A DNA stretch of 44,050 nucleotides. It comes from a virus. The stretch lies in IMG/VR virus record IMGVR_UViG_3300009285_000021, positions 1 through 44,050 of that record; one strand, 5' to 3'. The position numbers and the translations under genes are program-made. A model generated the notes under the pieces. It ran no database searches. It was not told the origin of the DNA and saw only the letters and a program-made list of their open reading frames with translations. Of the stretch, positions 1-40,090 are shown piece after piece; position 1 is the first letter of the stretch; every line of letters begins with the position of its first letter.

Positions 1-77
1 GCTACTGCTGAAAATATGGCTGTGTTAATCGGTGATAGGGTATTTCTCGGAAGTATTCCTGCTATTGTTCTTGAGCC
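1..77. repeat. Terminal overlap. Bases 1-77 are identical to 43974-44050, indicating circular contig closure and a unit genome of 43,973 bp.
   Basis: Direct comparison of the window start (gctactgctgaaaatatggctgtg...ttcttgagcc) with the window end gives an exact 77-nt match. Confidence 0.95.
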
Positions 78-20250: not shown

Positions 20251-20279
20251 TTGACAAAAAAGGAATAATTGTGTAAACT
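20251..20279 (+). promoter_or_regulatory. Promoter (TTGACA-17-TAAACT) for the accessory operon
   Basis: TTGACA lies at 20251-20256, followed by a 17-nt spacer ending in gtg and TAAACT at 20274-20279. The architecture matches the promoters at 10237 and 14183. Confidence 0.65.
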
Positions 20280-20296
20280 ATGGCTATGAAAAGAAC

Positions 20297-20390
20297 GGAT
20301 AACCAAAACAATCAAAAAGGGCAGGTGGCTACGAAAGTAGCAATGGTTTTAATTCCCATCGGGGTTATCCACCATTTTCACACCTGCCTT
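20297..20390 (+). ncRNA. Structured 5' leader: a three-way junction with a GNRA hairpin and a possible pseudoknot
   Basis: P1 pairs GGCAGGTG (20320-27) with CACCTGCC (20381-88) and is followed by TTTT. The hairpin is GCTAC-GAAA-GTAGC (20328-41). AATGG (20342-46) pairs with CCATT (20372-76). The upstream GGATAACC (20297-304) is complementary to GGTTATCC (20363-70). Confidence 0.4.
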
Positions 20391-20410
20391 TTAAATAAGG
20401 ACAAAAAGAT

Positions 20411-21094
20411 ATGATTAAAACCTGTCCAACATGTAAAAAAGAATTCCATTCTGTTTTTAAACATTGCTCTGTTAAATGTTCAAAAAGTATTATTCATCAA
20501 GCAACAAGACGAAAAATGAGTTTAGCAAAAAAAGGTAAAATGCCAAAATTCATACCCGATAATCACGGAAGACATCACTCTTTAGAAACAATAGAGAAAA
20601 TGAGAAAATCGAGCTACTGGAAAGGAAAACATCTTCCAAAAGAAATGGTACAGAGGATGAAAGGTAGAGTTGTAACAGATGAAACAAGAAGAAAAATAGG
20701 GTTATCTTCAAAGGGGAGAAGACACACAGAAGAGCAAAAAAGAAAAATAGGTTTAAAATCTATTGGTAACAAATATGGGTGGAAAGGCGGATTGACTCCC
20801 GTATACACACTGATTAGGTGTAGTTTGAAATATTCAGAATGGCGACAGAAGGTATTTACAAGGGATATGTTTACTTGCATGGATTGTGGAGATAAAACAG
20901 GTGGTAATTTAGAAGCACATCACGTAAAATCTTTTTCAGTTTTAGTAAAAGAGTCAGAAACTTATTTTCCATTATTAAACCTTTACGATTCATCTATGTT
21001 GTATAGCCCTCTTTGGGATATTGACAACGGTAAGACATTGTGCGAGAAATGTCATAGAAAATATTTTAAAAATACAAGTAAGGTGAGGCAATGA
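20411..21094 (+). CDS. HNH homing endonuclease with NUMOD3-like repeats
   Basis: Three repeats of the H(S/T)xExxxK(M/I) type are present. The HNH core reads CMDCG...EAHHVKSF...NGKTLCEKCH. It is a paralogue of 23355-24062. Confidence 0.85.
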   Translation: MIKTCPTCKKEFHSVFKHCSVKCSKSIIHQATRRKMSLAKKGKMPKFIPDNHGRHHSLETIEKMRKSSYWKGKHLPKEMVQRMKGRVVTDETRRKIGLSSKGRRHTEEQKRKIGLKSIGNKYGWKGGLTPVYTLIRCSLKYSEWRQKVFTRDMFTCMDCGDKTGGNLEAHHVKSFSVLVKESETYFPLLNLYDSSMLYSPLWDIDNGKTLCEKCHRKYFKNTSKVRQ

Positions 21095-22146
21095 AAAAAA
21101 TATTAACCACAAATACACACTGGATATATTGCACGATGCTTGCCAAGATACCTGAAATACAATTGTTTGTTATGTCAATGAGATTTCAAGGCAGGGATAA
21201 ACAAGAAAATTATAGACCAATGCCTAAAAACATTTCACATATTCCAATAGATAATCCAAATCTTTTGGCTTTATATTTACATCCGGATTTTTTAAAACAA
21301 ATAGACCATATAATTTTACATCAGTTTTCAGACCTTGATATTTTTTGCAATAATAAAGCGCCGTGGTATAAGTTTTTACAGCCAATACCAAAGACATTTT
21401 TACTGCACAATTCTTCTACAACCGAATTTGGTAATGCTCCTCAAGAAATTATCAATAATAAGATAAGAGGATTGAGTCAAATATTCCAAGAAAACAATAT
21501 AAGACCTTGCACTATTTCTCAGTTTAAAGCTGAAAGTTGGAAAATGCCTATGAGCGTAATATTGCCTGGCATAGACACAAGCGAATTCGTGAACAGTTGG
21601 ACTGGTCGGAACAACAAGATAGTATTTAAAGATACGTTTGATAATTTTGCATTGAGAGTGTGCAGTAACTTTGAACACAGGGATTTTATGAACGGGTACA
21701 AGATAGGCAATAATGTTTTAGGTCAATTGAGATACCCGAACGTTGTTTTAGGAGAAGGCAATAATCCTTCTCAAAGATTACCGAACACGGTATTTACAAT
21801 CTCAAACAATTTAGAGCATTACAAGGAATATTTAAGCATGGCTCGGTTTCTATTCAGTGCGAACGTTCCGCAGTTTGAGGACTGGTATAACTTATCATCT
21901 TTGGAAGCGGTGGCGGTCGGTACGCCTTTAATTATGACGCAACACGAAAGACAAAACAATATTCCTGAATTTACTAAATACTTTCCGATAGTATCTGATG
22001 ACTATAACCTGTTAATATCCGAGTGTAAGAAACTTTTTATGGACTGGGAATATGCTTCACATATTTCTAAATTGCAGAACGGATTTATAGATAAATATTT
22101 CAGCTTGTCTAAATTTGTAACTTCGTGGACGGAGATTCTGAAATGA
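21091..22146 (+). CDS. GT-B-fold (group 1-like) glycosyltransferase candidate
   Basis: The C-terminal segment FEDWYNLSSLEAVAVGTPLIMT resembles the E..(F/Y)G...LEA.A.G.P motif of GT4/GT1 enzymes. The rest of the protein is unassigned. Confidence 0.5.
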   Translation: MKKILTTNTHWIYCTMLAKIPEIQLFVMSMRFQGRDKQENYRPMPKNISHIPIDNPNLLALYLHPDFLKQIDHIILHQFSDLDIFCNNKAPWYKFLQPIPKTFLLHNSSTTEFGNAPQEIINNKIRGLSQIFQENNIRPCTISQFKAESWKMPMSVILPGIDTSEFVNSWTGRNNKIVFKDTFDNFALRVCSNFEHRDFMNGYKIGNNVLGQLRYPNVVLGEGNNPSQRLPNTVFTISNNLEHYKEYLSMARFLFSANVPQFEDWYNLSSLEAVAVGTPLIMTQHERQNNIPEFTKYFPIVSDDYNLLISECKKLFMDWEYASHISKLQNGFIDKYFSLSKFVTSWTEILK

Positions 22147-22403
22147 AAATAAATATAAATTTTGACTGGTATTTAAATGAATTCCTTACTTTTGAAGTTA
22201 AGGCACAAAATGGCTGTAATGCTTGTTGGAGTGAATGGGAAATTAATGTAAAAAGAAAATATGAGGGACAAGCAGAAGAAATGACAAGTAATGTAAGATT
22301 TGAACATAATCCCACTATCGATGATATAAAAAATTCCATCATTGGTTATTGTATTAGAAATAACATATTTTATCAAAACAAAGTAAAAGGCAAAACAAAA
22401 TGA
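22143..22403 (+). CDS. Hypothetical protein (86 aa)
   Basis: ATGA-coupled ATG at 22143. Confidence 0.45.
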   Translation: MKININFDWYLNEFLTFEVKAQNGCNACWSEWEINVKRKYEGQAEEMTSNVRFEHNPTIDDIKNSIIGYCIRNNIFYQNKVKGKTK

Positions 22404-22585
22404 GTTTAATGAATCCTGATAAGGTGGAGAGTTTTAAAATAACTCCTATTTCTATAACGGTAACATTTAAGGAAAAACTAGATAATGGCTGTACAGGGCA
22501 AGTTGTATACATGGAAACACAAAAGTTTATGAAATGTAAAACTTATGAAGAACTTTATAAACAATATCAAGGTGGTGCTTGGTGA
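22400..22585 (+). CDS. Hypothetical protein (61 aa)
   Basis: ATGA-coupled ORF. Confidence 0.45.
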   Translation: MSLMNPDKVESFKITPISITVTFKEKLDNGCTGQVVYMETQKFMKCKTYEELYKQYQGGAW

Positions 22586-23358
22586 GAATAATATCAATAC
22601 ACTTACTAAACGAAGAGGGTGGGTTAAAAATAGCATATGAGAAAGATAATCCGTTTGAGAAACCAACGAAACAAGAATTAAGCATACTGAAAGACGGGTT
22701 GAACAATATGCTACCTAATGAAGATGTTACTGCGGATTTTTACGACAAGGATTATTTTGAAGGCAATAGTGTTAAGTCAGGACTTTCGGACTTTGACAAT
22801 AGAAGCAAGGCATATGCGGAAGAACACGCAAGGGACAGAATACAAAAGATAATTGAAATGATGGAGAACCTGCCTGACTGTCAATCTGATTTTAAAATAC
22901 TTGAGATAGGCTGTGCCTTTGGTCATACAGTGGACGCTTTACGTTTAATGGGGTATAGTGCTTACGGAGTTGATATTTCGGAATATGCTATAAACAAATA
23001 CAAACAAGATTATAAGCACGTAGGGAACTTTAAGGATTTTAGATTAGAGAGTATTCCGGCACAAGGAATAAGTTTAGCTTGTTATGAAACATTTAATTTG
23101 ATTTATGGATTTAATTTAATGGAGCATATACCTGAATTAGATTTAAGAATGTTTATAGAAAACTTACGGACTAACCTTAATGGTAACGGATTAGCATTTT
23201 TTACGATTGATCCAGTATTCGGGGCTGACAATAGTCATTGTACTATTCACAGCCGGAAATGGTGGGACAAGCTGTTTGCAGAACACGGATTTTCGCCTCA
23301 CAAGGAAGGTACTGAAATGTTTGAGAAAATAAACGGTCATTGTTATAGGAAAATATGA
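22579..23358 (+). CDS. Class I SAM-dependent methyltransferase
   Basis: Motif I is ILEIGCAFGHT, followed by an acidic post-I residue (GVDIS). Non-ATG start (TTG or GTG at 22579/22582). Confidence 0.75.
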   Translation: MVRIISIHLLNEEGGLKIAYEKDNPFEKPTKQELSILKDGLNNMLPNEDVTADFYDKDYFEGNSVKSGLSDFDNRSKAYAEEHARDRIQKIIEMMENLPDCQSDFKILEIGCAFGHTVDALRLMGYSAYGVDISEYAINKYKQDYKHVGNFKDFRLESIPAQGISLACYETFNLIYGFNLMEHIPELDLRMFIENLRTNLNGNGLAFFTIDPVFGADNSHCTIHSRKWWDKLFAEHGFSPHKEGTEMFEKINGHCYRKI

Positions 23359-24062
23359 TAGAAAGAAAATGTTTAATATGTAATAAAGTATTTAAAGTAA
23401 AGCCATCCAGAATAAAAGATGGAGGTGGCAAATATTGCAGTAATACATGTAGATATAACGGGAAAAAGAAAGAACATCACTGGAATTGGACAGGAGGAAA
23501 ACATAATATAAGGTATTGTAAGGCGTGTGGGAAAAAAATATGTTTAACAAATAGTCAAATAAAAAAAGGTATGGGTAATTTTTGTTCTTATACGTGTTCG
23601 GCTTCTGATAGGACCGGAATAAAAAATCCTAATTGGCGTGGAGGTGGAACTCTAAAAACTTGTAAAAGTTGCGGAAAAGAGTTTATGGTTAGAAGAGGTA
23701 GCAATCATCAATGTTGCAGTAAAGAATGTATTAGTGGAAAATATCATCCAAACTGGAAAGGTGGAAATACACCAATAATTATTAAAATTAGAATGTCTAC
23801 AAAATATAAACACTGGCGACAACAAGTATTTATTCGTGATAACTTTACCTGTCAAGATTGCGGTCAAAGAGGTGGCTATTTAGAATCACATCATCATAAA
23901 AAGACTTTCACCGATATATTGGAAGAGGTAAAAAAGAATTTGCCTTTAATGGAATTGTATGATGGTGCAATGGTATACGAGCCATTATGGGATATTGATA
24001 ATGGTAAAACACTTTGTAATAAATGCCACAATAAAACGAAAAAAGGAAGAAAATGCGTATAG
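23355..24062 (+). CDS. HNH homing endonuclease
   Basis: It has repeated Zn-ribbons and NW(T/R/K)GG motifs. The HNH core reads CQDCG...ESHHHKK...NGKTLCNKCH. It sits between the methyltransferase and the radical SAM gene. Confidence 0.85.
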   Translation: MIERKCLICNKVFKVKPSRIKDGGGKYCSNTCRYNGKKKEHHWNWTGGKHNIRYCKACGKKICLTNSQIKKGMGNFCSYTCSASDRTGIKNPNWRGGGTLKTCKSCGKEFMVRRGSNHQCCSKECISGKYHPNWKGGNTPIIIKIRMSTKYKHWRQQVFIRDNFTCQDCGQRGGYLESHHHKKTFTDILEEVKKNLPLMELYDGAMVYEPLWDIDNGKTLCNKCHNKTKKGRKCV

Positions 24063-25306
24063 CTCTTGTTAATCCCCCTTGCTATGGAGAGAATTTTCAC
24101 ATTTCCGGAATTTCGGGCTGTCGTTGGAGTTCTTTAAGTCCAAACACAATAAACAAAGAACCGTTAAAAACCCAAAAGGATTATTATTATGCAATATTCC
24201 CATTTCCATTAGCTTTTGCTTCGACGATATTGAAAAGTCAGGGACATACAGCAAGAGTTTTTGATTTTCTAAATCTTAATATTTCCTATGGGGAAATGTA
24301 TGAAATTTTAAAAGAATTTAACCCAGATAAAATTTATCTTGAAAGTTGCAATGTTTCGTACAATCAAGATATTCAGATATTAGAGAACATAAAAGAGTTT
24401 ATGAATATTCCTGTATGTATGGTCGGAAGTGTGGTAAGACAAAAGAAAGGGGACATACCGAAAGGGATTGAGTACATTGAAGGCAATTACTTACAGACAT
24501 TAGGCGGTGAGAATTACGTTGATTTGTTGACAATGCCGGATCGTGATGATTCGGTACTACTTTACAATGACTATCATTCATTTGCACATATTATCAAAAA
24601 ACCTCAATTACAAGTATGGTCGAGTATAGGCTGTAAGTTTAATTGTAGCTTCTGCTCCTGGCGGTGGAACGTTTATGACGGGAAGGTGGCATACAGAAAG
24701 ATTGAACATATTCGGGACGAAATAAAGTATGCTGTTGAGAAGTGGGGTATTAAGTCTGTGTTACTAGATGATGATACGGTGAACATGAATGATGACAGAA
24801 CAAAAGAACTCGTTAAAATGATAAATAAGGATTTAAAAGGTTTACAATTTTCAGCAATGGTCAGAGCGGACTCGTGCAGTTTAGATACGTTTAAAGCAAT
24901 GAAGGACGCGGGGTTTGTTAGCTTAAAGGTCGGAGTTGAAACGTTCAGCCCGTCCGTACTCAAGAAAATAGGCAAGGGACTTGAATCGGCGGAGTTGCTT
25001 GAGCGGATATTGAAGTTATGGGATATGGGGTACTTCATGTATCTTTCTACCATGTCACACATTTTAGGCGAAACAGAACAAGAAAGAGAAGAAACGAATA
25101 TTATACTAAAGGAACTGGGAACGCTCGGAATAAAATATCAGCGTCCAATGGCGGTGCCTCTTCCCGGTACAAAAATGGGCAAGGAATTTCAGGAGTGGGA
25201 GTTGCGTAATTTTGGGGATGTTATACCTGACTTTGATTATGGCAAGTACGACGGGTCAGGGGAGTTAATGAAAAGGATAATGGCGTATTCAAAGGGGAAG
25301 CAATGA
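24053..25306 (+). CDS. B12-binding-domain radical SAM enzyme (class B)
   Basis: The N-terminus reads RIALVNPP, typical of the cobalamin-binding domain. The CX3CX2C motif is IGCKFNCSFCSW. An Elp3-like core follows (SLKVGVETFS). Confidence 0.8.
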   Translation: MRIALVNPPCYGENFHISGISGCRWSSLSPNTINKEPLKTQKDYYYAIFPFPLAFASTILKSQGHTARVFDFLNLNISYGEMYEILKEFNPDKIYLESCNVSYNQDIQILENIKEFMNIPVCMVGSVVRQKKGDIPKGIEYIEGNYLQTLGGENYVDLLTMPDRDDSVLLYNDYHSFAHIIKKPQLQVWSSIGCKFNCSFCSWRWNVYDGKVAYRKIEHIRDEIKYAVEKWGIKSVLLDDDTVNMNDDRTKELVKMINKDLKGLQFSAMVRADSCSLDTFKAMKDAGFVSLKVGVETFSPSVLKKIGKGLESAELLERILKLWDMGYFMYLSTMSHILGETEQEREETNIILKELGTLGIKYQRPMAVPLPGTKMGKEFQEWELRNFGDVIPDFDYGKYDGSGELMKRIMAYSKGKQ

Positions 25307-26031
25307 TAAAGTTTAATGGTGTAAAAATAAATGTTACTAAGTTTCCAGATAAAACATCACAAGTGTGGAAACTGACAAACCTTGTATCATCAGGCAATAA
25401 TGCTGTGGATTGGTATTTTGATTACGAGGGGGAAATAGTTTTGTTGGCTCAATTAAAATTTCTCTTGGATAGTATGAAAATAATACCAACACTTTACATC
25501 CATTACTTGCCTTATGGCAGACAAGATAAAGAAGTTTCAAATGATTCTACTTTTGCATTATTCCCTTTTGCTAAACTTCTCAATGTTCTGGAATTTAAAG
25601 CTATAAATATATTAGATCCGCATAGTTGGAAAGCAACAACACTTATAAATAATTCAAAGGCAATATACAAATACGAATATTTGCAAAGTGTAATAAAGGA
25701 TAGGAATATAGATGTTTTATGTTTTCCTGACAAGGGAGCATTTGAGAAATACAGTACGTTGCCTGTCTATTCGAGCTTACCATTTATTGTTGGTGAAAAA
25801 GTACGGGAGCAATCTACTGGGAATATAACTCATTATAATATATCTGGCAAAGTTAAAGATAAAAATGTTCTTATCGTTGATGACATTTGTGACGGTGGAG
25901 CAACGTTTATTATTATTGCGAAAAGTATTAAAGCTTTAGGGTCAAAAGAGATTGATTTGTTTGTAACTCACGGACTATTTACTAAAGGCAAAGACATATT
26001 ACTCAACGCAGGTATATCTAAAATATTTTAG
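25303..26031 (+). CDS. Ribose-phosphate pyrophosphokinase-like enzyme (Prs homologue; candidate ADPR-pyrophosphate synthetase Adps of NARP1)
   Basis: Motifs YLPYGRQD, ILDPHS and VLIVDDICDGGATF (the PRPP/ribose-phosphate binding loop). At 242 aa it is shorter than housekeeping Prs. Confidence 0.75.
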   Translation: MIKFNGVKINVTKFPDKTSQVWKLTNLVSSGNNAVDWYFDYEGEIVLLAQLKFLLDSMKIIPTLYIHYLPYGRQDKEVSNDSTFALFPFAKLLNVLEFKAINILDPHSWKATTLINNSKAIYKYEYLQSVIKDRNIDVLCFPDKGAFEKYSTLPVYSSLPFIVGEKVREQSTGNITHYNISGKVKDKNVLIVDDICDGGATFIIIAKSIKALGSKEIDLFVTHGLFTKGKDILLNAGISKIF

Positions 26032-26039
26032 GAGGGGAT

Positions 26040-27524
26040 GTGAAAAAACTTAATGCAATGCTGATGTGCGACTTCTATAAAATAGCTCATAGGACTATGT
26101 ATCCTGATAAAACAGAGTTGGTATATTCAACGTGGATTCCTAGAACATCGAGAATGAATTGTAATGAGGTTGTAGTGTTTGGTATTCAATCTTTTGTTAA
26201 GCTATATCTTATAGATTTCTTTAATGATAACTTTTTCAACAGGAATGAGGAAGAGATTGTAGAAGAGTATTCAAGGATAATAAAAAATACGCTCGGTGAG
26301 CAAACTCCCGATGTACAGCATATAAGAGATTTACATAAACTAGGATATTTGCCATTGAGAATGAGGGCGTTACCCGAAGGATCGGTTATTCCGTTAAGAG
26401 TACCAATGATGACAGTAGAGAATACTAATCCTAAGTTTTTTTGGTTGACAAACTTTATAGAATCTCTTGCTTCCTGTGAACTTTGGCAATCAGCAACATC
26501 CGCAACAATAGCAAGAGAATATAAAAAGATACTTGATTTCTGGGCTATTAAGACAGTCGGCAATACTGAATTTGTTAAGTTTCAAGGACACGATTTTTCA
26601 ATGAGGGGTATGAGTAGTTTGAATTCGGCAATATCTAGTGGGATGGGTCATTTAACTTCTTTTGTTGGTACTGACAATATTCCGGCAATACAGGGAGCAG
26701 AAGAGGTGTACGGTGCGGACGTAGAAAAGGAATTAGTCGGTACGTCTATACCGGCAACAGAACATTCAGTCCAGTGTGCGTATGAGGATGATTTAGAATA
26801 TTTAAGAAATATTATAACAAAAGTACATCCTAAAGGATTTGTTTCAATTGTTTCCGATGGTTATGACTTCTGGGATGTTATCGGTCGAGTTATACCATTA
26901 CTTAAAACAGAAATACTTAACCGCAAGGGCGGTACAATAGGTGACAGAGTGGTAATAAGACCTGATAGCGGTAATCCGGTAAAGATTGTATGCGGTGATT
27001 CAGAGGGTGAAACAGAAATTGAACGCAAGGGAGCAATAGAAGCGTTATGGGATATATTCGGTGGAACTGTATCGGAGAATGGGTATAAGGTGCTTGATTC
27101 ACATATAGGATTGATTTACGGTGACGCTATAACGCTTGAACGCTGTAATGAAATATGCAGACAATTGGAAGCGAAGGGATTTGCTTCAGTAAATTGTGTT
27201 TTCGGTATCGGTTCATATACTTATCAGTACAACACAAGAGATACTTTCGGATTTGCTTTAAAGAGTACTCTTTGCGTTATAGACGGTGTTGAGAAACAAA
27301 TATTTAAAACACCAAAAACGGACAATGGAGTTAAGAACAGCTTAAAGGGTAGGGTTATTGTTGTTGAAGAAAATGGCAAATACAAATATATTGACGGTAT
27401 TGGATTAAAAGAACATAGACCTGAAAACTGTTTGAAGGATGTATTTTCAAATGGTAAACTATGCAATGAACAAACGTTAAGTGAAATAAGAACAAGGATA
27501 ATTAAATACTCGGAGGGAAAATGA
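26040..27524 (+). CDS. Nicotinamide phosphoribosyltransferase-family enzyme (NadV/NAMPT or NARP1 Namat)
   Basis: 494 aa. The N-terminus reads MLMCDFYKIAHRTMYP (the DxYK.xH signature). Further motifs are FQGHDFSMRG, VIRPDSGNP and GLIYGDAIT. GTG start at 26040. Confidence 0.85.
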   Translation: MKKLNAMLMCDFYKIAHRTMYPDKTELVYSTWIPRTSRMNCNEVVVFGIQSFVKLYLIDFFNDNFFNRNEEEIVEEYSRIIKNTLGEQTPDVQHIRDLHKLGYLPLRMRALPEGSVIPLRVPMMTVENTNPKFFWLTNFIESLASCELWQSATSATIAREYKKILDFWAIKTVGNTEFVKFQGHDFSMRGMSSLNSAISSGMGHLTSFVGTDNIPAIQGAEEVYGADVEKELVGTSIPATEHSVQCAYEDDLEYLRNIITKVHPKGFVSIVSDGYDFWDVIGRVIPLLKTEILNRKGGTIGDRVVIRPDSGNPVKIVCGDSEGETEIERKGAIEALWDIFGGTVSENGYKVLDSHIGLIYGDAITLERCNEICRQLEAKGFASVNCVFGIGSYTYQYNTRDTFGFALKSTLCVIDGVEKQIFKTPKTDNGVKNSLKGRVIVVEENGKYKYIDGIGLKEHRPENCLKDVFSNGKLCNEQTLSEIRTRIIKYSEGK

Positions 27525-27754
27525 AGAAGAAACATTTAATAATAGGTGTAGGCGATCTTGTAGACAAGTTGTCAATAGCCAACGCAAAAATAGGACGGCT
27601 CGAAACAAAGGCAAGAAGTGAGAATATATCAAATGAGGAGAGAGGTAAGCTAACATTACAGATAAGACAGATAAATGATAATGACCGTGTTGTAGCCCGT
27701 AACGCCTTAAACATACTATTCGGGAAAGATTACTGGGAGGAAAAAGACAAGTGA
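27521..27754 (+). CDS. 77-aa helical protein of unknown function, coupled at both ends
   Basis: ATGA overlap with the NAMPT-like gene and GTGA overlap with the radical SAM gene. It contains no Cys. The sequence includes DLVDKLSIANAKIGRLE... Confidence 0.5.
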   Translation: MKKKHLIIGVGDLVDKLSIANAKIGRLETKARSENISNEERGKLTLQIRQINDNDRVVARNALNILFGKDYWEEKDK

Positions 27755-28794
27755 GCTATGCAAAATGGAAGAACTTTAAAATATTAAGCCACTATGATAG
27801 TGCTTTAAAAATAAAGGAAGGAAAAAGGGTTTTTCCCCGTATGGCGTTATTTTGCCCGTCATCAGCTTGTGATTTATCCTGTTATTATTGCGATTACCCC
27901 GAGGATAATGCGAAGGCAACAATAATGGCAGAGGATAAGGCATTAGATGTGATTAAGCAGTTAGCGGGTGCAGGTGTAAAGGGAATTGATTTCTGCGGGT
28001 TAGGTGAGCCATTACTTGTGCCTTACGCAAAGAAGTTATTGAACTTAATCAAAACAAAAGGCATGGAGTTTGGTATAATCAGCAATGGAACTCACTTTAA
28101 AGACGATCTAATGGAGTTTATAGTAAAGCACGGGCGGTATATCAGAATTAGTTTAGATTCAGCAATACCTGAACTTTATACTGAAATGAAAGGGGTTGAT
28201 AAATGCGAACTGGTAAAGGAAAACATTGTTAAGGCGATTGAATTTAAAAAGAAAAACAATTACAAATGCGAAATATCAGTTAGAATAGGTTTAACAAAGA
28301 AAAACTTTACAGCTATGAACTTGACTAAGACATTACAATTCTGTTATGAAAGTGGAGTTGATATAATAAACATCAGACCTATGCAACAAGTGGCAGATGA
28401 AATTGACGAAACAAAAGATAAAGAGTTAATCACGTCTTTAATGGAGTTTATAGGACAACGTGAGTATGCAGAGATTATGAAGGGCAAGGAAAGGCGGTTG
28501 ATAGTAAGTTTTAGTAAGTCAACAATAGAAACAAAATGCTGGTTGACGCCTTTACATACGGTTATTATGGCGGACGGTAATGTGTATCTGTGTTGCTACT
28601 TTCAGGATCGTAAGGACAAACATTGTATCGGCAACATACTTGAGAAGCCATTTAAAGAGATATGGGGAAGTAGAAGGCACAAAGAAGCAATAGCAAGTAT
28701 AGACCCAAAAGAGTGCAATCAGTTCAGTTGTAAGTTTCACGGATATAACCGAACCTTAGACGAGTTTATGACATCAGATCCGGAGCATTTATGA
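27751..28794 (+). CDS. Radical SAM enzyme with a C-terminal SPASM/twitch-like auxiliary Cys cluster
   Basis: The CX3CX2C motif is ACDLSCYYCDY, followed by GLGEPLL. The C-terminus reads CWLTP...IMADGNVYLCCYF...HCIGNILEKPFKEIWGS...C..FSC. GTG start. Confidence 0.8.
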   Translation: MSYAKWKNFKILSHYDSALKIKEGKRVFPRMALFCPSSACDLSCYYCDYPEDNAKATIMAEDKALDVIKQLAGAGVKGIDFCGLGEPLLVPYAKKLLNLIKTKGMEFGIISNGTHFKDDLMEFIVKHGRYIRISLDSAIPELYTEMKGVDKCELVKENIVKAIEFKKKNNYKCEISVRIGLTKKNFTAMNLTKTLQFCYESGVDIINIRPMQQVADEIDETKDKELITSLMEFIGQREYAEIMKGKERRLIVSFSKSTIETKCWLTPLHTVIMADGNVYLCCYFQDRKDKHCIGNILEKPFKEIWGSRRHKEAIASIDPKECNQFSCKFHGYNRTLDEFMTSDPEHL

Positions 28795-29669
28795 AAGTTG
28801 GGTTATACCTATCACATATGAACAGTTACACCCACACAAAAGGTGTTTTTGGTGAAGAAATTTTAGTTGATGCCTATATCAAAGGATTACGCAAGAACTA
28901 CCCTGAACATACATTTAACAAATACGGCGACAATATGGGATTTACTCCGATTGTTGACATAGCAATATATTTTAGTGGTAAGGCAAAGAACAAGGGGAAA
29001 CAAAAGAATATTTATATTCAGCAGAATTACAGATTAGAGAACGATTTACAAGCAAAGATAGTAAAACAATACAAAGATATAATACGGGATAGTAATACAA
29101 AGGTTGCGACAATAAGCGGAAAGTATGCAAAGGAACACGGATGGTACTTGCTTGAGCCGGCAGTTGATACAGATTTATTTTATCCGGTTAAGTTTAATCA
29201 ATTGTATAACTTTGATGTTAGCTACATAGGAAACAATATAAAGGACTTAGAGAAATCAAAACAATATCTCGGCATACAAGGTGCAAAGGTCGGAGTATTC
29301 GGACATGGATTTAACAATCCGATAAGTCATAAGGATTCATTGAACATCTATACATCAAGCTTTATAAACTTAAATTATGTTATCAGGCCTGAATTGGACG
29401 TATTGATATGCAGACCGTACCAGATCGCCGGGTGCAAGGGCTTTATAGTAAGTGAGTGGACTGAATCGCTTGAAAAGAACTTCGGGAAAACAATAGAGTA
29501 TGTAAGACCAGGGCAGAATCCGAGTTTAAGGATAAAGGAAGTGTTGGCACAAATAAAAGGCAATACATCAAAGGCAAAACAACAAAGGGAAGAAGCATAT
29601 AAGATTGTGCTTGATAAGTTTAACTGTGAGATACAAGCGGAAAAACTGTGGAGGTGGATAAATGAGTGA
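28791..29669 (+). CDS. CgeB-like (Glyco_trans_1_2-type) glycosyltransferase candidate
   Basis: The C-terminal half reads DVSYIGNN...INLNY...LICRPYQIAGCKGFIVSEW... and resembles 33580-34497 and the CgeB family. Confidence 0.5.
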   Translation: MKVGLYLSHMNSYTHTKGVFGEEILVDAYIKGLRKNYPEHTFNKYGDNMGFTPIVDIAIYFSGKAKNKGKQKNIYIQQNYRLENDLQAKIVKQYKDIIRDSNTKVATISGKYAKEHGWYLLEPAVDTDLFYPVKFNQLYNFDVSYIGNNIKDLEKSKQYLGIQGAKVGVFGHGFNNPISHKDSLNIYTSSFINLNYVIRPELDVLICRPYQIAGCKGFIVSEWTESLEKNFGKTIEYVRPGQNPSLRIKEVLAQIKGNTSKAKQQREEAYKIVLDKFNCEIQAEKLWRWINE

Positions 29670-30123
29670 ACTAAAACAATGGATAAAATGTTTGACAGAA
29701 CGTCACGAGTGGAAGGAAGAAGGTACAGGCAAAGACAACAAGATTGTTTGCTTCTGTAAGTATTGTGGCAAAGTAATAACAATAGAGAAAATAGTAAACG
29801 AAAGAGAACAAAGAGCAAAGGAAACAGATGGTAATCCTTACGGAGAAGCAGAGCATTGTTTTGGCTTATGGTCAGGACAAGTTAATTGGTTTGTGCCTTA
29901 TTATAAATTGGTAAGACAATACGCAGGGGAAACAATAGCCAACAACTACAAGACAGCTAAACAGATACAAGCTAACAACACAATGGAAGGACTGATTAAG
30001 AAGTATCAGCAAAACATGAAGTACGCTGAACAACAAGCAAAGAAACAAAAGAAAACAATAGCAACAAGAAGCTTTAGAATTATAGATGAACAAGGTAATG
30101 TACTACACAAGTGGACTGCTTAA
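29662..30123 (+). CDS. Hypothetical protein (153 aa), the last gene of the accessory operon
   Basis: Coupled ORF with an 8-nt overlap. It has a Zn-ribbon-like CFCKYCGK motif. Confidence 0.5.
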   Translation: MSELKQWIKCLTERHEWKEEGTGKDNKIVCFCKYCGKVITIEKIVNEREQRAKETDGNPYGEAEHCFGLWSGQVNWFVPYYKLVRQYAGETIANNYKTAKQIQANNTMEGLIKKYQQNMKYAEQQAKKQKKTIATRSFRIIDEQGNVLHKWTA

Positions 30124-31498: not shown

Positions 31499-32909
31499 AA
31501 TAAGCATAGCCGATAAAGATATACGTGCAAGGATAATTGATATGGCTATTGCCTGTGGAATTACAGACGATTATCAGCATGAAATGATATTTGATGAAAG
31601 TCGGGATATTGTTATAGACAAGGCAAGGGGTATAGGTATAACAACGGCGGTATCATTTCAGAAAATGATTAAGATTTTAATGCCTGAATTGTGGTCGTCC
31701 GCTCAAAGAGAAAATGTTATAGTTTCAGCCGGTGCAGAACAAGCTAGACACTTGATTGATTACGTTAAACACTTCTGGTCGGTGTTAGAAAGTCAGTTTT
31801 CGCAGAAGTTAAAGATAACGAAGGACAAGGCGGAAACTTCGGACGGTCGATGGATTATGTCTTTAGCTTGTGAGCCAGATAGTATTCGTACTTATCACGG
31901 GGACGTAGTGTTTGATGAGTTTGCATATTTTGAGAATGGGTTAGATCGTAAATTCTTTAAGGCGGTATCTGGTGTACAGACTTCCGGCGGTCAGACACAT
32001 TATATCTCTAATCCGAATGGTGAAGCAGGTACGTTCTTTGATATATGGCGTGACAAACAGGGAATTTACAAAAAGTATAGTTTACCTTATACGGTTTGTA
32101 AAAGGAAAATGTACCGTGATACTGTTCTTCGTGCAAAGAAGAAATTATTTGATTACGAGTTTGACGAAGAGTATTGTTGTCTGTTTAATCCCGCTTCACG
32201 TGGGGCTATACCTTATAAGTATATTGATAATGCGGTGAAACAATGGGCGGAGTTGGGGTTAAAGATTAACGAGTACCGTAAAACCGATTGTATGTTAGGA
32301 ACAGGAATTGACTTTGCTAAAATGGTTGACCAAACAATATTGGTAACGCTGGAAAAAAGGAATATGCTTAAAATACCGTATTGGTTGGAAGTTGTTCTCG
32401 GTGATTATGACGAACAATTAAATTACATAGACCGCTTGGACGGAGAGATTAACTCACAGCAAGTATTCTTTGACAAGACTGGTAATGTTAAGTTAGCAGA
32501 GGAAATTGAAAAGCGTTTTTCGCTAAAGTATGTCGGTAAACAATTTACTAATCCGTATAAAGAGAAGTTATTCCAGAAAATCAAGTATGCTTTAATGGAT
32601 CGTAAGTTGCCTTTACCAAATGACGAAGCTTTAATCCGACAACTGAAAGGGCTTAAACGCAAGGTATCCGCTTCGGGCAATGTTCAGTACGCAGGTAAGG
32701 AAGATGACTATGTTTGGGCTTTAGGATTGGCGTTGGACTGTATCGAAGAGGAGGGCGGGGATATTTCAATTGAGGAACGTACTACCGTTGAGAACACAAA
32801 ACACAAAGAAGCTAATCAAGTTATACGCCCGTCTGTATTAACGCAGACAGGTGACTTTGGACGTGGTGAAGTCCGTACAGGTGCAAACTGGGGAGGGATG
32901 TTTAAATGA
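31488..32909 (+). CDS. terL: Terminase large subunit
   Basis: The Walker A-like motif is DKARGIGITT and the Walker B motif is VVFDEFAYF. The C-terminal nuclease region contains GIDFA...D. Length 473 aa. Confidence 0.85.
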   Translation: MANEISIADKDIRARIIDMAIACGITDDYQHEMIFDESRDIVIDKARGIGITTAVSFQKMIKILMPELWSSAQRENVIVSAGAEQARHLIDYVKHFWSVLESQFSQKLKITKDKAETSDGRWIMSLACEPDSIRTYHGDVVFDEFAYFENGLDRKFFKAVSGVQTSGGQTHYISNPNGEAGTFFDIWRDKQGIYKKYSLPYTVCKRKMYRDTVLRAKKKLFDYEFDEEYCCLFNPASRGAIPYKYIDNAVKQWAELGLKINEYRKTDCMLGTGIDFAKMVDQTILVTLEKRNMLKIPYWLEVVLGDYDEQLNYIDRLDGEINSQQVFFDKTGNVKLAEEIEKRFSLKYVGKQFTNPYKEKLFQKIKYALMDRKLPLPNDEALIRQLKGLKRKVSASGNVQYAGKEDDYVWALGLALDCIEEEGGDISIEERTTVENTKHKEANQVIRPSVLTQTGDFGRGEVRTGANWGGMFK

Positions 32910-33400
32910 ATTATTACCCGTCAACAACAGATAAGATGTGGAATGAAGAAAACAAATACACAATCGGCTATTGTTATGGCTTAGGCTTAGATGTAGGTTG
33001 TGGCAATAGGACTTTGCAACCTAATATGATTACGGTAGACAACTGGGCGGACGGTGCTGATTACAAAATGGAAGCGGATAACTTACACGAGTTTAAAGAC
33101 AAGATGTTTGACTTTGTTTATGCTTCTCACGTCTTAGAACATTTGAAAAGTCCGTTAGAAGCAATTGAAGAGTGGTTGCGGGTAGTTAAGGTCGGCGGGT
33201 ATGTAATTATAATAACACCTGATATGCGGTTTGTGCCGACAAAGGGAATGGCAAACGGTGACCCTCAACACAAGTACGACTGGAAGCGTGAAGAGGTTAG
33301 AGAAATGGTCGAGATGTTATCGGGTTGCGAAATGGTTAATAAGAACGTATGGGCGTTGCCTAATTACTCAATGTTGTTTGTTTTGCGGAGGATTAAGTGA
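32906..33400 (+). CDS. Class I SAM-dependent methyltransferase (small, Methyltransf_11-like)
   Basis: Motif I is GLDVGCGN, followed by FDFVYASHVLEHL and VKVGGYVIIITP. Confidence 0.75.
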   Translation: MNYYPSTTDKMWNEENKYTIGYCYGLGLDVGCGNRTLQPNMITVDNWADGADYKMEADNLHEFKDKMFDFVYASHVLEHLKSPLEAIEEWLRVVKVGGYVIIITPDMRFVPTKGMANGDPQHKYDWKREEVREMVEMLSGCEMVNKNVWALPNYSMLFVLRRIK

Positions 33401-33579: not shown

Positions 33580-34497
33580 ATGGCTCGAATACTTATGTGC
33601 TACGCACGAGATGAATACACTACAGCAAGGCATTTTGAAAACGTAATACGGAAATCTAAAGACCATCAGTTTTTAGGTGTTGGATTCACAAAGCCGAATC
33701 TGGCTTCCGTTATGGGCGATCAAGCATGGATTCCAACAGCACAAGAAGTGGTGCTCCCTGATTTACTTTCTAAACTACCCGCTAAACCTGATATTGTTAT
33801 AGTCATGCAGGGATTTGCACCAATGAAGATATATGGAATTGAATCCATAGATATACCCTCGGTGTATTATGGGATAGATACTCATATGGTTCGGGACGTG
33901 ATATTTGAGGAAGCAAAGAATTATAAACATGTATTCTTTGCACAAAAAAAAGCAATTCCAGAGTTTAAAGAGTTTTGCGGTAAGGATAGTCATTGGTTGC
34001 CTTGTTGTGCCGAACCTTTAATCCATAAATCTATGAACTTCGAGCCGGAATATGATTTTGCCTTTGTTGGCGGTATAGATTTAAGCGAAGCCCACAAGCC
34101 CCGCCGGGACGCTATTAAAAAGCTAAAGGAAAAGTATAAGGTGTTTGTAGGAAATGCTTACGGGTACTTTATGACAATGCAATATAACAAAGCAAAGGTG
34201 GTATTTAATTACGCCGTTAATGATGACTTGAATATGAGGGTATTTGAAGCAATGGCTTGTAAAAGACCTCTTTTAACAAATAAATTAAGCGTTGAGAGCG
34301 GTTTAAACGAGTTATTTCAGGACGGGGTAAACCTTATGACCTTTGATGATAACAATTTAATGGAAAAGGCAGAATTGCTTATAAAGGATAAAGCATTACG
34401 AGATAAACTGGCTCAGTCGGGATATACCGAAGTAGTCAATAAACATACTTATCAGAAACGACTGGAGGCAATATGGCAGACAATAGCGAAGACTTAG
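33580..34497 (+). CDS. CgeB-like glycosyltransferase (Glyco_trans_1_2 / DUF3880-type)
   Basis: DFAFVGG...RRDAIKKL...YNKAKVVFNY...NMRVFEAMACKRPLLTN...GYTEVVNKHTYQKRL is typical of the CgeB spore-maturation glycosyltransferase family. Confidence 0.65.
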   Translation: MARILMCYARDEYTTARHFENVIRKSKDHQFLGVGFTKPNLASVMGDQAWIPTAQEVVLPDLLSKLPAKPDIVIVMQGFAPMKIYGIESIDIPSVYYGIDTHMVRDVIFEEAKNYKHVFFAQKKAIPEFKEFCGKDSHWLPCCAEPLIHKSMNFEPEYDFAFVGGIDLSEAHKPRRDAIKKLKEKYKVFVGNAYGYFMTMQYNKAKVVFNYAVNDDLNMRVFEAMACKRPLLTNKLSVESGLNELFQDGVNLMTFDDNNLMEKAELLIKDKALRDKLAQSGYTEVVNKHTYQKRLEAIWQTIAKT

Positions 34498-37944: not shown

Positions 37945-38946
37945 ATGAGTACATGGGGAGAATTACCGTTAATAAGTATAGCAGAAAAGACCACGTTTAA
38001 TCCGCAGTTTTACATTGCGGAAGTAATACAGCAAGTGCAGGAAAGAGCAAAGATTTACCCTGTTGCGGGTATGCTTGAAAAGTTTGGAATGAAAGACCAT
38101 GTTGGACAGACCTTTCAGGGCAACATCACCGTCAATCTGGGTTCTACCGGTGGAACGTACTGGGATTTAAAAGCTGGTACGAAAGTCGCTCTTTCTGGTG
38201 TTGTTACAAAGTCCTATGTCGGGACTGTAAGCGAAATGGGCAACGGCGTTAAGATGGAGAAATTCCTTCTTAATGTTTCGCCTTCCGATATTGAAGGTCG
38301 TTCGGTTCGTTATGCTCTCTCACAGGACATAGCGGATATGCTTGACACCAAAATTCGTAATGCTATCTACACCGCAACTACGAACAAGATGAACGCAGGT
38401 ACTTACGCAACTGTTGGAGCGTTCATAACGATTGGTACTTATGCCAACATGAAAATGAGTTGGAATACAATCGTCAGGATGAACACACAGAAACAAATTC
38501 AGAACATTGATACGGATATGCCTTTCTATATAAATCCGTACCAGAACGAGGATTTGTTCCTTGATACGACTGCTTCCGCTTCTTTCACGGATATTTCCAA
38601 ATATACGGATAAAGGCGTGCAGAAAATCTACGATCTTGAAATAGGTAAAATCGGACAGTTCCGGTTAATACCTACCAACAGGGTTGTAGGAACAAAAGAA
38701 ATAAACGGAACTACGGGTACAGTACAGACCGCAGTTGCGTTCGCAGTTGTCCCTGAGCTTGCAGTTGCTATGGCTTGGGCGTTACCGACTGAATTCAGGT
38801 ATGAAGAGGACTATGATACTGACTTCGGTAGAACTTCTGCACTGGCTCACTATGGTCAGGGTGGAGCTTGCAAACTGGTTGATGAATACTCAATACTGGT
38901 TAAGTCAACAGTAAGAGCGGACATAACCGGCTACGCAATCGGCTGA
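37945..38946 (+). CDS. Major capsid protein
   Basis: 333 aa with an AAGGAG RBS. A strong terminator follows the gene. The position in the head module fits. Confidence 0.75.
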   Translation: MSTWGELPLISIAEKTTFNPQFYIAEVIQQVQERAKIYPVAGMLEKFGMKDHVGQTFQGNITVNLGSTGGTYWDLKAGTKVALSGVVTKSYVGTVSEMGNGVKMEKFLLNVSPSDIEGRSVRYALSQDIADMLDTKIRNAIYTATTNKMNAGTYATVGAFITIGTYANMKMSWNTIVRMNTQKQIQNIDTDMPFYINPYQNEDLFLDTTASASFTDISKYTDKGVQKIYDLEIGKIGQFRLIPTNRVVGTKEINGTTGTVQTAVAFAVVPELAVAMAWALPTEFRYEEDYDTDFGRTSALAHYGQGGACKLVDEYSILVKSTVRADITGYAIG

Positions 38947-39001: not shown

Positions 39002-40090
39002 ATGTTTCTAACTTCTGTAATCAGATTACCTGGCTTCGAAGTAGGTGGAGAGTTCCTTAACTTATACGGACTTGAGCCGTGTAAGACATCTTTGAATACA
39101 ATAAACTTTTTGGCAAAATCACCAATGGCAGAATATATTGCGATTGAGGAAGAGCCGGAAGCTTACAAGAAAAGATATTTTAAAGGTTGTCTTGCATTGA
39201 ATCCGAAATCAAATATCTTAGTAAGTAGATACGGTGGTCTGGGGGATATTCAATTTATACTTCCTGCAATTAAGGAAATCAAGAAACGTTATCCCGAAGT
39301 AAAAATAAGAATGGCAGTCATGGAAAAAGACCGTGAGATGATTCATAATTGTGATTTTATAGACAGTTTTTGTCAGACACATTTTCCGACAGTGAAGGAT
39401 TTAGAATGGTCGGATTATGTACTGGACTTTTTTGATACGGTTGAGGGAATCGGCGAGGACGAAGCGAAGTTAAGAAATCCGATAGATATATCGGCTGAAA
39501 TAGTTGGGTTGAAGTTATCGGACTATAAAGGATTTTGGAAAACAACGGTTGAGGAAAAGAAGTGGGCGGAGTCTATTTTTGCAGGTCGTAAGGGGTTAAA
39601 AATAGCTATGCCGTTATCTGCTTCGTCACCTCATAGGTCGTGGACGTTACAAGATGAACTTATACAAAAGTTAGTAGAGTGGAATAAGGATATTACAGTT
39701 GTTATATTCGGTGAGGGTCAAGGTCATGCGGAAGCGGTTTACAATCGGATTAAACGGTTAAATATTCCGAACGTGATTGATATGGTCGGGAAAACTACTA
39801 CAAGGCAGTATGTGAACTTGGCTTTAGAAGCGGATTGCATTTTCACAAATGATTCGGGAATTGTTAATCTTGGAGCAATCTTTGACAAAAAGATTTTAGC
39901 GATTTACTCAACTGTACCCGCTGAAACAAGAATTAACCATTACGAAACGGTGCAGGGGTTACAAGTTAAGAGCAGTTGTTCCCCTTGCTACAAATTATCG
40001 GCAGAGTGTTTGCATAAAGACAAATGCTTAAATACGGTTACGGTCAATGAAGTGTTTACCAAAATCGTTAGTATGCTGGAGGTCAAATGA
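39002..40090 (+). CDS. Glycosyltransferase family 9 (heptosyltransferase-like)
   Basis: Motifs ILVSRYGGLGDIQFILPAIKEIKKRYPE and VGKTTTRQYVNLALEADCIFTNDSGIVNLGAIFDKKILAIYS are classic GT9 motifs. AGGAGG RBS. Confidence 0.7.
   Translation: MFLTSVIRLPGFEVGGEFLNLYGLEPCKTSLNTINFLAKSPMAEYIAIEEEPEAYKKRYFKGCLALNPKSNILVSRYGGLGDIQFILPAIKEIKKRYPEVKIRMAVMEKDREMIHNCDFIDSFCQTHFPTVKDLEWSDYVLDFFDTVEGIGEDEAKLRNPIDISAEIVGLKLSDYKGFWKTTVEEKKWAESIFAGRKGLKIAMPLSASSPHRSWTLQDELIQKLVEWNKDITVVIFGEGQGHAEAVYNRIKRLNIPNVIDMVGKTTTRQYVNLALEADCIFTNDSGIVNLGAIFDKKILAIYSTVPAETRINHYETVQGLQVKSSCSPCYKLSAECLHKDKCLNTVTVNEVFTKIVSMLEVK

Follow-up and report, generated by a model that had tools for sequence, protein, structure and literature searches.

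Two phage genes are experimentally sufficient to rebuild nicotinamide adenine dinucleotide (NAD+) from ADP-ribose (ADPR) and nicotinamide in the NARP1 system (bioRxiv 10.1101/2024.02.11.579819), which is known from phages such as Bas63 and SPbetaL1 and consists of a Prs-like ADPR-pyrophosphate synthetase (Adps) and a NAMPT-like nicotinamide ADPR-transferase (Namat). The Namat of SPbetaL1 has a selectivity clamp of R40, F392 and Y396 and a catalytic R306 (PMC12774641). A gene pair of this kind (g8 and g9) was identified in the IMG/VR virus record IMGVR_UViG_3300009285_000021, whose 44,050 nucleotides are called the window here, within a chain of 13 plus strand open reading frames (ORFs) at 20411-30123, named g1 to g13 (Table 1). 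The chain also comprises a cassette for two radical S-adenosylmethionine (SAM) enzymes (rSAM1, g7, and rSAM2, g11), a methyltransferase and glycosyltransferases (GTs), as well as two HNH endonuclease genes (g1 and g6).

Virion glycosylation, the nearest described counterpart of the cassette in phages, was reportedly studied by Freeman and colleagues in 2023 for mycobacteriophages of the Che8, Corndog and Myrna type. It employs phage-encoded soluble GTs and methyltransferases, as are also found in the window phage, and to our knowledge it involves neither radical SAM enzymes nor a DUF4254 protein. The glycans have been reported on capsid and tail-tube subunits, as cited in PMC12619734. The mycobacteriophages belong to an unrelated phage lineage, and the acceptor, which is reported there, is one that we infer for the window phage.

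In Maf-type flagellin glycosylation islands a self-assembling structural protein is glycosylated in the cytoplasm, as is proposed for the phage. One putative island of this type, in a Desulfarculaceae metagenome-assembled genome (MAG; L147, the loci of our survey being denoted by L and a number), carries a homologue of rSAM2 (29% identity, E 5e-58) beside a GT of the Glyco_trans_1_2 family, like the pair in the window. The window phage differs from such islands in having no Maf gene and no genes for nonulosonic-acid synthesis. No reports of radical SAM enzymes in Maf-type islands were found in the literature, nor was any description of a cassette with this radical SAM pair or with DUF4254. We know of no mycobacteriophage virion glycosylation system or flagellin island described with either of them. 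Finally, the CgeB/YkvP spore-surface glycosylation proteins belong to the same Pfam family as g12 and a second GT of the window at 33580, a likeness at the family level only (E 6.8e-8 for g12) and here in a phage setting. The CgeB/YkvP family acts on a proteinaceous surface layer.

The cassette is conserved, rare and undescribed in the literature. The NARP1 pair and both HNH genes are each ordinary representatives of an established type.

The gene chain is a mosaic

Relatives of the chain were compared using gene tables and tblastn synteny, and breakpoints were located by DNA alignment. Among 5.8 billion proteins, only 13 homologues of rSAM1, 16 of rSAM2 and 10 of the g2 protein were detected, and owing to this extreme rarity essentially every relative could be inspected. 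The survey covered 226 loci (3.19 Mb), namely 80 metagenomic and 74 viral loci fetched with the rSAM1 profile, 15 viral loci fetched with the rSAM2 profile, and further loci, including some found via g2.

ATGA overlaps couple the NAD+ pair to rSAM1 on its upstream side and to g10/rSAM2 on its downstream side, and the first-pass annotation had taken this two-sided coupling as the sign of a functional unit with the radical SAM genes. A survey of the rSAM neighbourhoods contradicts this claim, as Prs/NAMPT genes were found on just one contig, L003, among all loci. This IMG/VR contig (rSAM1 87% identical) is the closest relative, shows the order g2, rSAM1, Prs, NAMPT, small ORFs, g10, rSAM2 and GT, and keeps NARP1 in the same slot as the window, with the arrangement preserved at 90-95% identity. 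The pair is missing from five cassette-bearing relatives, one of them with radical SAM genes 91-93% identical to those of the window. By tblastn synteny, no Prs, NAMPT or HNH gene was detected in L034, L035, L036-38 and L150/L151, all of which keep g2, the methyltransferase and rSAM1. In L150/L151 (rSAM1 90.6%, methyltransferase 91.9% and rSAM2 93.3% identical) the order is g2, methyltransferase, rSAM1, a divergent DUF4254-like ORF of 89 amino acids (aa) and rSAM2. The core genes are also retained in L034 (rSAM1 80%), L035 (75%) and L036-38 (45%), and the slot after rSAM1 holds different ORFs in each relative, i.e., different small ORFs in L034, ORFs including a methyltransferase in L035 and yet others in L036-38. 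The longer of these contigs also retain g10 or a DUF4254-like ORF, rSAM2 and, where the contig reaches, the GT. More distantly, the cassette occurs without Prs/NAMPT in L136 and L153.

The DNA alignment places the breakpoint exactly at a gene boundary, since all three sequences compared (window, L003 and L150) stay collinear as far as the stop codon of rSAM1 and diverge there. In addition, Prs-like homologues are present in 1,538 cultured-phage records, and neither rSAM1 nor the g2 protein was found in any of these or in other cultured-phage records. Judged by this distribution, NARP1 occupies a variable slot as one unit that was acquired or is readily lost, and its coupling to the radical SAM genes is best explained as a consequence of insertion at gene boundaries, not of shared function. 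The coupling is read as compact insertion because the same ATGA overlaps join the clearly unrelated HNH genes, which are absent from every relative. A pathway that links the NAD+ pair to the radical SAM enzymes, for which a modified NAD- or ADPR-type nucleotide had been suggested as a product, is essentially excluded by the occurrence of Prs/NAMPT independently of the cassette, an observation which the first-pass annotation had itself named as a refutation. Taken as a whole, the sequence comparison describes the chain as a mosaic of a conserved phage cassette and three unrelated passengers, the NARP1 pair and the two HNH genes.

The NARP1 pair itself was correctly recognized as an NAD+-rebuilding module by the first-pass annotation. 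The g9 protein matches the SPbetaL1 Namat structures 9W5X/9W5W over residues 6-487 with an E value of 2.9e-195 (652 bits), compared to about 1e-56 for canonical Nampt. The alignment shows that R40, R306 and Y396 are kept, and F392 is replaced by the still aromatic tyrosine. Adps (242 aa) is encoded in the same orientation 8 nt upstream of g9. By protein families, gene order and key residues, g8 and g9 are thus assigned to a genuine NARP1 module with the same two-gene order and families as in Bas63 and SPbetaL1. No functional difference to these systems can be distinguished, the sole oddity being the position inside an unrelated cassette, with a radical SAM gene on either side.

The HNH genes represent the other two passengers. 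Both g1 and g6 share the HNH/NUMOD domains of free-standing phage homing endonucleases and the insertion at or just inside gene boundaries, and they fit this type by their nuclease domain and by presence/absence polymorphism between collinear genomes. At the equivalent positions, no homologue of g1 was found in L003, L034, L035, L036 and L150, and g6 is absent from all relatives. The two proteins are 59% identical over the HNH domain. An HNH gene also lies inside the cassette block of the distant phage L153, pointing to repeated endonuclease invasion of the same cassette.

The collinearity of the window and L003 breaks about 24 nt past the ancestral ATG of g2 and returns at 21091. The approximately 790 nt inserted into the 5′ end of g2 consist of a structured element and g1. 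The eight codons left of the ancestral g2 start now open a 44-codon ORF (20280-20414) running into the inserted element, and g2 restarts from a new Shine-Dalgarno sequence and an ATG which overlaps the stop codon of g1. The insertion differs from that of a usual free-standing HNH gene by the structured element of about 85 nt upstream and by the displaced start codon of the entered gene; an intron or intein signature is missing. A group I intron, with the structure and the HNH gene inside g2, was considered and rejected, as no intron model matched, the HNH stop codon and g2 are not separated by any sequence, and g2 is equipped with a Shine-Dalgarno sequence and an ATG of its own.

The fold which had been annotated as a structured leader is real (-37.8 kcal/mol, z = -3.96), but it belongs to the first HNH insertion and is not an operon leader. 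It is present in a single copy in the window, is missing at the matching position of L003 and has no Rfam family match. With its terminal U-tract, it looks like a terminator or attenuator of the mobile unit. A weak resemblance to CRISPR-DR60 inside the element (20346-20381; Rfam, 19.3 bits, E 0.49, in a permissive scan) is probably due to chance; a solitary repeat-like RNA in a phage could also act as an anti-CRISPR decoy.

The consensus-like promoter at 20251 was confirmed. A stretch of 66 nt spanning it shows 91% identity to L003, and in L034, L035 and L036 a consensus promoter likewise lies immediately 5′ of the g2 homologue. All 13 ORFs and junctions of the first-pass annotation are present at the coordinates listed there, with ATGA stop/start overlaps at 21091, 22143, 22400, 23355, 25303, 27521 and 28791, a GTGA overlap at 27751 and longer overlaps at 22579 (7 nt), 24053 (10 nt) and 29662 (8 nt). 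The only gap in the chain comprises 8 nt before 26040 (g9). With overlaps at 11 of 12 junctions, compared to 19 of 48 outside the chain (Fisher p = 0.0025, from a crude ORF call that misses genes below 55 aa), the chain is packed tighter than the genome average. No plus strand terminator-like site was found within 20411-30123. One promoter, the lack of an internal terminator and the overlaps are consistent with a single coupled operon. Overlaps of 4 nt are frequent elsewhere in the genome as well (12 of 48), and they also tie both mobile HNH genes to their adjoining genes.

Table 1. Features of the gene chain and of the structural-gene region of the window.
Feature	Position	Strand	Matches and occurrence
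Sigma-70-type promoter of cassette	20251..20279	+	TTGACA-17-TAAACT, 10/12 matches
Remnant of ancestral g2 5′ end (MAMKRTDN, eight codons)	20280..20303	+	DNA alignment with L003
Structured RNA or terminator-like element	20311..20393	+	Long stem GGGCAGGUG...CACCUGCC, then UUUU; part of HNH insertion
g1, free-standing HNH/NUMOD3 homing endonuclease (passenger)	20411..21094	+	Pfam NUMOD3 4.9e-8; several PHROG HNH families
g2, clade-specific 351-aa protein, probably GT-B-fold glycosyltransferase (core)	21091..22146	+	10 homologues in 5.8e9 proteins; in all relatives
g3, 86-aa ORF, variable accessory	22143..22403	+	No family match; homologue solely in L035 (64%)
g4, 61-aa ORF, variable accessory	22400..22585	+	No family match; homologue solely in L003, elsewhere, after Namat
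g5, class I SAM methyltransferase (near-core)	22579..23358	+	Methyltransf_23 3.3e-14; phrog_27380 1.8e-20
g6, free-standing HNH homing endonuclease (passenger)	23355..24062	+	phrog_1271 6e-17
g7, rSAM1, AprD4-like radical SAM enzyme, N-terminal Rossmann-like domain (core)	24053..25306	+	PF04055 1.3e-17; 417 aa
g8, Adps (Prs-like ADPR-pyrophosphate synthetase), NARP1 (passenger)	25303..26031	+	phrog_619 1.2e-59; Pfam Pribosyltran, Pribosyl_synth
g9, Namat (NAMPT-like nicotinamide ADPR-transferase), NARP1 (passenger)	26040..27524	+	phrog_448 4e-192
g10, 77-aa DUF4254-family helical protein (core)	27521..27754	+	11/16 family members match PF14063, best 1.7e-9
g11, rSAM2, radical SAM enzyme, SPASM/twitch-type C-terminal domain (core)	27751..28794	+	PF04055 4.4e-16; PF13186 1.1e-10
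g12, Glyco_trans_1_2 (CgeB-family) glycosyltransferase, conserved rSAM2 partner (core)	28791..29669	+	PF13524 6.8e-8
g13, 153-aa Cys-containing protein, semi-conserved	29662..30123	+	Homologues in L003 (65%), L034 (46%); no family match above threshold
Second class I methyltransferase, coupled to terminase gene	32906..33400	+	Methyltransf_11 8.9e-12; kept after TerL in L034 (93%), L036 (56%)
Second Glyco_trans_1_2 glycosyltransferase, between terminase and portal	33580..34497	+	PF13524 3.2e-21
Major head protein (candidate glycan acceptor)	37945..38946	+	phrog_1357 2.7e-14
GT9-family glycosyltransferase directly 3′ of major head gene	39002..40090	+	PF01075 2.5e-8
GT2-family glycosyltransferase, ATGA-coupled to GT9, before Mu gp36-like head gene	40087..40851	+	PF00535 6.8e-15

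Cassette proteins and their gene contexts

The searches against Pfam and PHROG agreed with the earlier domain calls for the two HNH endonucleases, the class I methyltransferase, the two radical SAM enzymes (one of them SPASM), the Prs-like and NAMPT-like proteins and the CgeB-family GT. As far as the relatives indicate, the conserved core consists of g2, the methyltransferase g5, rSAM1, the DUF4254 protein g10, rSAM2 and the CgeB-family GT g12. A homologue of g5 occurs in four of five lineages at varying positions (L034, L035, L036 and L150) and was not found in the fetched part of L003.

Single-sequence searches against the PDB gave weak results for both radical SAM enzymes, so that profiles were needed. 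The rSAM1 family has an invariant CX3CX2C motif (C194-x3-C198-x2-C201), and its profile matches AprD4 best (6fd2, 3e-26), followed by RimO, OxsB and TokK. AprD4, the radical SAM dehydratase of apramycin C3′-deoxygenation, is thus the best solved relative of rSAM1, with a similar N-terminal Rossmann-like domain and core. The AprD4 match is limited to the core of rSAM1 (residues 180-379), and no gene for an AprD3-like reductase partner was seen in the phage. In the case of OxsB, TokK and CysS, the region matched by the profile reaches into their N-terminal domains. The earlier designation of rSAM1 as B12-binding holds for distant homologues at 22-29% identity, which have the B12-binding domain PF02310; in the protein itself this domain was not detected at E <= 0.01. 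The equivalent N-terminal domain of AprD4 is not known to bind cobalamin.

The invariant residues of rSAM2 are C40-x3-C44-x2-C47, C263-x12-G276-x4-C281 and C322-x4-C327. The second of these groups corresponds to the CX9-15GX4C element of SPASM enzymes. The full seven-cysteine SPASM motif for two auxiliary clusters, of which CX2CX5CX3C is a part, is not present, with just C322-x4-C327 downstream. This pattern would be compatible with one auxiliary cluster of a twitch-like or reduced SPASM type. In the AlphaFold2 model (pLDDT 88.5; 347 aa), the core begins near residue 30, and no N-terminal RiPP recognition element (RRE, PqqD-like; RiPP for a peptide that is made on ribosomes and modified after translation) was seen. 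The structural neighbours found with Foldseek are about equally close and include SuiB, DesII, anSME, SkfB, BlsE and viperin (TM scores of 0.6-0.68).

The small protein g10 has 15 relatives in 1.84e9 representative proteins. The L036 protein is 73% identical, compared with 40-45% for the two radical SAM enzymes of this relative, and its gene stands before rSAM1 instead of rSAM2. No relative was found in the PDB, and there is almost no literature on DUF4254. For g2 there is no Pfam or PHROG match. Its AlphaFold2 model has a mean pLDDT of 58 and shows a confident Rossmann fold in the N-terminal half only; the best Foldseek matches are GT4/GT1 enzymes at a low TM score of about 0.3. In addition, the segment SLEAVAVGTP aligns weakly with the nucleotide-sugar-binding region of the GT at 33580 (hhalign E 0.003, probability 10%). 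The earlier term "GT-B-like" has weak fold and profile support and no family match, and g2 is probably a GT-B-fold glycosyltransferase.

The gene contexts of the homologues point to sugar chemistry. The nearest cellular homologue of rSAM1 is located in a cluster with a Wzx flippase, a GT4, a Glyco_trans_1_2 protein, sulfotransferases and an epimerase for nucleoside diphosphate (NDP) sugars. Relatives of rSAM2 adjoin NDP-sugar epimerases/dehydratases, GT11, GT2, methyltransferases, and NUDIX and HAD genes, and a DUF4254 relative comes after a CmcI-type sugar O-methyltransferase.

Furthermore, rSAM2 and a GT are neighbours in the window, L003, L034, L136, L153, the podovirus MW202801 and the Desulfarculaceae MAG, in which the adjoining gene encodes a Glyco_trans_1_2 protein. 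In the Wolbachia phage WO (L049 3645-5981, MN180251.1), the annotation describes a single protein of 778 aa in which a group 1 GT is fused to a radical SAM domain of the MoaA/NifB/PqqE family, and its gene adjoins GlmU-like and epimerase genes. This fusion is taken as a Rosetta-stone link for the rSAM2-GT pair. The region 655-15397 of L147 is a putative Maf-type flagellin-glycosylation island and encodes a UDP-GlcNAc 2-epimerase, a cytidylyltransferase (CMP-sugar synthetase-like), a Maf-like flagellin glycosyltransferase, the rSAM2 homologue with its Glyco_trans_1_2 neighbour, two more rSAM-SPASM paralogues (three in total), a DegT aminotransferase and an amine oxidase. A Zixibacteria homologue of rSAM2 (L149) adjoins FliW. 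On these contexts, the cassette genes are regarded as a conserved unit with sugar-tailoring affinities, in agreement with the earlier remark that such radical SAM enzymes, methyltransferases and GTs are typical in the tailoring of sugars, nucleotides and glycans. A decorated virion glycan had been among the possibilities listed there.

Candidate acceptor and alternative explanations

An exact 77-bp direct repeat at the two termini of the window (1-77 = 43974-44050) marks it as a phage genome that was assembled as a circle and appears complete, with a length of about 43,973 bp. It contains Mu-like portal, protease and gp36 head genes, and the plus strand carries nearly all genes. Soluble GTs and methyltransferases beside structural genes, a feature of phage virion glycosylation, are found in the window (Table 1) and similarly in L136, MW202801 and L148. 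Homologues of the second Glyco_trans_1_2 enzyme are encoded in L034 and L036 and, as neighbours of rSAM1, in L136 and L153. In L136, a 9-kb block of genes for GT2, GT1_2, a methyltransferase, an rSAM1-like enzyme, a B12-type radical SAM enzyme, an rSAM2-like enzyme and a GT is located between the genes of the major head protein and the head-tail adaptor. The distant IMG/VR phages L153 (5360-11015) and L136 (6059-11819) share the part with GT1_2, the rSAM1-like enzyme, the extra B12-type radical SAM enzyme, the rSAM2-like enzyme and the GT. In MW202801, the capsid gene is followed by one hypothetical gene and by genes for an rSAM2-like enzyme, a GT, PhyH, a methyltransferase, a NodB-like protein and a GT. 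In L148, genes for a methyltransferase, an rSAM2-like enzyme and a GT2 adjoin the portal gene, and in L039 the block comes after the tail fibre. No membrane segments were predicted in any of the nine enzymes of the phage, including the GT9 and GT2 proteins, and no flippase, Gtr-type or polymerase gene was found in the genome.

The sugar contexts, the rSAM2-GT pair, the structural neighbours, the flagellin counterparts and the soluble enzymes together argue for a cytoplasmic glycan-building or tailoring pathway with a structural protein as acceptor. That the chain is a mosaic whose cassette constitutes such a pathway, most likely with a virion structural protein as acceptor, is the explanation we favour, with moderate confidence. 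The cassette would be transcribed from its own consensus promoter. Three self-contained mobile units have inserted at gene boundaries, namely an HNH gene together with its structured 5′ element, which entered 24 nt inside the former start of g2, a second HNH endonuclease gene between g5 and g7, and the NARP1 counter-defence module in the variable slot just after g7. NARP1 would rebuild NAD+ from ADPR and nicotinamide alone and feed nothing into the cassette. The cassette enzymes would act in the cytoplasm with four soluble enzymes of the head module, the methyltransferase and GT after the terminase and the GT9 and GT2 enzymes after the capsid gene. The GTs would add host nucleotide-sugars, the methyltransferases would methylate the added sugars, and the two radical SAM enzymes may carry out radical sugar chemistry such as deoxygenation/dehydration, epimerisation/oxidation or C-methylation. 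With a capsid or tail protein as acceptor, a glycan coat on the particle would result.

Several points weigh against this explanation. The assignment of g2 as a GT is weak. The structural neighbours of rSAM2 mix peptide or protein modifiers (SuiB, anSME and SkfB) with sugar-nucleotide enzymes (DesII, BlsE and viperin), and due to these mixed substrate classes the substrate cannot be read from its structure alone. No obvious Ser/Thr-rich acceptor tail was seen in the capsid protein or the tail-tube protein (389-1357), the cassette of the window lies between the DNA-metabolism and packaging modules and thus outside the head module, and no nucleotide-sugar synthesis enzymes are encoded in the genome. 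The flagellin call in L149 is weak (Flagellin_IN 24 bits, no match to a PDB flagellin). NARP1 is kept by the closest relative L003, and a lineage-specific benefit of co-expression is possible. Finally, glycan, acceptor and enzyme activities are predictions, which build on the conservation, domain identities and gene contexts.

A broader proposal, which we put forward only tentatively, is that diverse uncultivated phages carry a radical-SAM-dependent glycosylation in which a SPASM/twitch radical SAM enzyme and a CgeB-type GT, paired or fused and often joined by an AprD4-like radical SAM enzyme and by a DUF4254 protein, would place an unusual deoxy-, C-modified or methylated glycan on the capsid or tail. 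The same pair may serve bacterial flagellin glycosylation, and the two would then represent a shared, undescribed branch of the chemistry by which structural proteins are glycosylated.

Modification of a host envelope glycan (lipopolysaccharide (LPS) core, teichoic acid or capsule) as a superinfection block or release aid, like in seroconverting phages, is unlikely. It is in line with the GT9 enzyme, whose family comprises the heptosyltransferases of LPS core synthesis, with the location of rSAM1's nearest cellular homologue in a polysaccharide cluster that includes a Wzx flippase, and with the well-known phage GTs altering the host serotype, which are mentioned in PMC12619734. Such a function fits poorly with nine enzymes without membrane segments, with an apparently complete genome free of Gtr-like, flippase and polymerase genes and with the lack of an integrase or repressor among the ORFs scanned. 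Related cassettes are moreover embedded beside capsid, portal and adaptor genes.

Still less probable is a hypermodification of the phage DNA with glycosylated or decorated bases against restriction. A DNA N6/N4 methylase gene and recombination genes are found shortly upstream of the cassette, and radical SAM enzymes and GTs occur in known phage DNA hypermodification pathways. Virus-encoded GTs hypermodifying DNA are also cited in PMC12619734. Among the ORFs scanned, which do not cover all small ORFs, there was no deoxynucleoside monophosphate (dNMP) hydroxymethylase, thymidylate-synthase-like enzyme, 5-hydroxymethyl-deoxyuridine (5-hmdU) kinase or phage DNA polymerase, and the homologues are found in flagellin glycosylation, polysaccharide clusters and virion modules, not in nucleotide metabolism.

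A role of the SPASM enzyme in maturing a ribosomal peptide (RiPP or glycocin-like), whose precursor would be g10, g3 or g4 and which the GTs would glycosylate, is very improbable. SPASM enzymes are typically peptide maturases, the top structural neighbours include SuiB, SkfB and CteB, and a small ORF is translationally coupled upstream of rSAM2. This ORF, g10, is however a DUF4254 member which is conserved over its whole length, more strongly than the enzymes, which stands before rSAM1 in L036 and which has a relative adjoining a sugar O-methyltransferase; g3 and g4 are not conserved. Furthermore, rSAM2 lacks an N-terminal RRE and has 347 aa compared to 410-450 aa for SuiB, CteB and SkfB, and no protease or exporter was seen in the scanned proteins.

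Least credible of all is a single pathway of the NAD+ pair and the radical SAM, methyltransferase and GT genes, with Adps/Namat supplying or recycling an ADPR- or NAD-type nucleotide for modification, since the arrangement shared with L003 and the coupling on both sides stand against the distribution of the pair, its boundary breakpoint, its sufficiency as two genes and the identical coupling of the HNH genes.

Surroundings of the chain and significance

No tRNA genes were found in the tRNA scan, and no Rfam families were found at threshold anywhere in the window. The 9.9-kb region gave no megablast match to cultured phages, and the TerL protein is less than 25% identical to that of any cultured phage. 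The only hint at the host, from the strong GGAGG-type ribosome-binding sites and the close Namat match to SPbetaL1, which we take to be a Bacillus phage, is to a Firmicutes-like one.

Upstream of the chain, a perfect sigma-70 consensus promoter (TTGACA-17-TATAAT, 12/12) was identified at 18517-18545, 5′ of another HNH/NUMOD-like endonuclease gene (18569-19072), which is followed by the DNA N6/N4 methylase gene (19101-19886). No gene has been assigned over the roughly 500 bp (30124-30629) that separate the cassette from the packaging genes and contain just a hydrophobic ORF of 82 codons (30142-30390); this could be a pac/cos or regulatory region. In L150 (6772-7131) and L151 (301-660), a gene of the Acb2/Tad1-hairpin family (anti-CBASS or anti-Thoeris sponge family) is located directly 5′ of the g2 promoter, and the region around the cassette resembles a hot spot of counter-defence genes. 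In addition, ORFs of 70-74 aa in the NARP1-less relatives L034 (10970-11182) and L150 (5147-5371) carry a precomputed Pfam label "NMN_transporter" (PnuC). They are far too short for a transporter, and the small membrane ORF of the window at 30142-30390 is unrelated to that of L034.

In compact phage genomes like this one, stop/start coupling is no sign of shared function, as counter-defence modules and homing endonucleases slot in and inherit the coupling. With this cassette, phage-encoded glycosylation would come to include radical SAM sugar chemistry. Should the virion be the acceptor, phage particles coated with glycans would occur well beyond the mycobacteriophages, which bears on receptor masking, particle stability and immune recognition. 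This would also provide a first functional context for the uncharacterised DUF4254 family and for the gene pair of an rSAM-SPASM enzyme and a CgeB-type GT, which is also present in flagellin-glycosylation islands.

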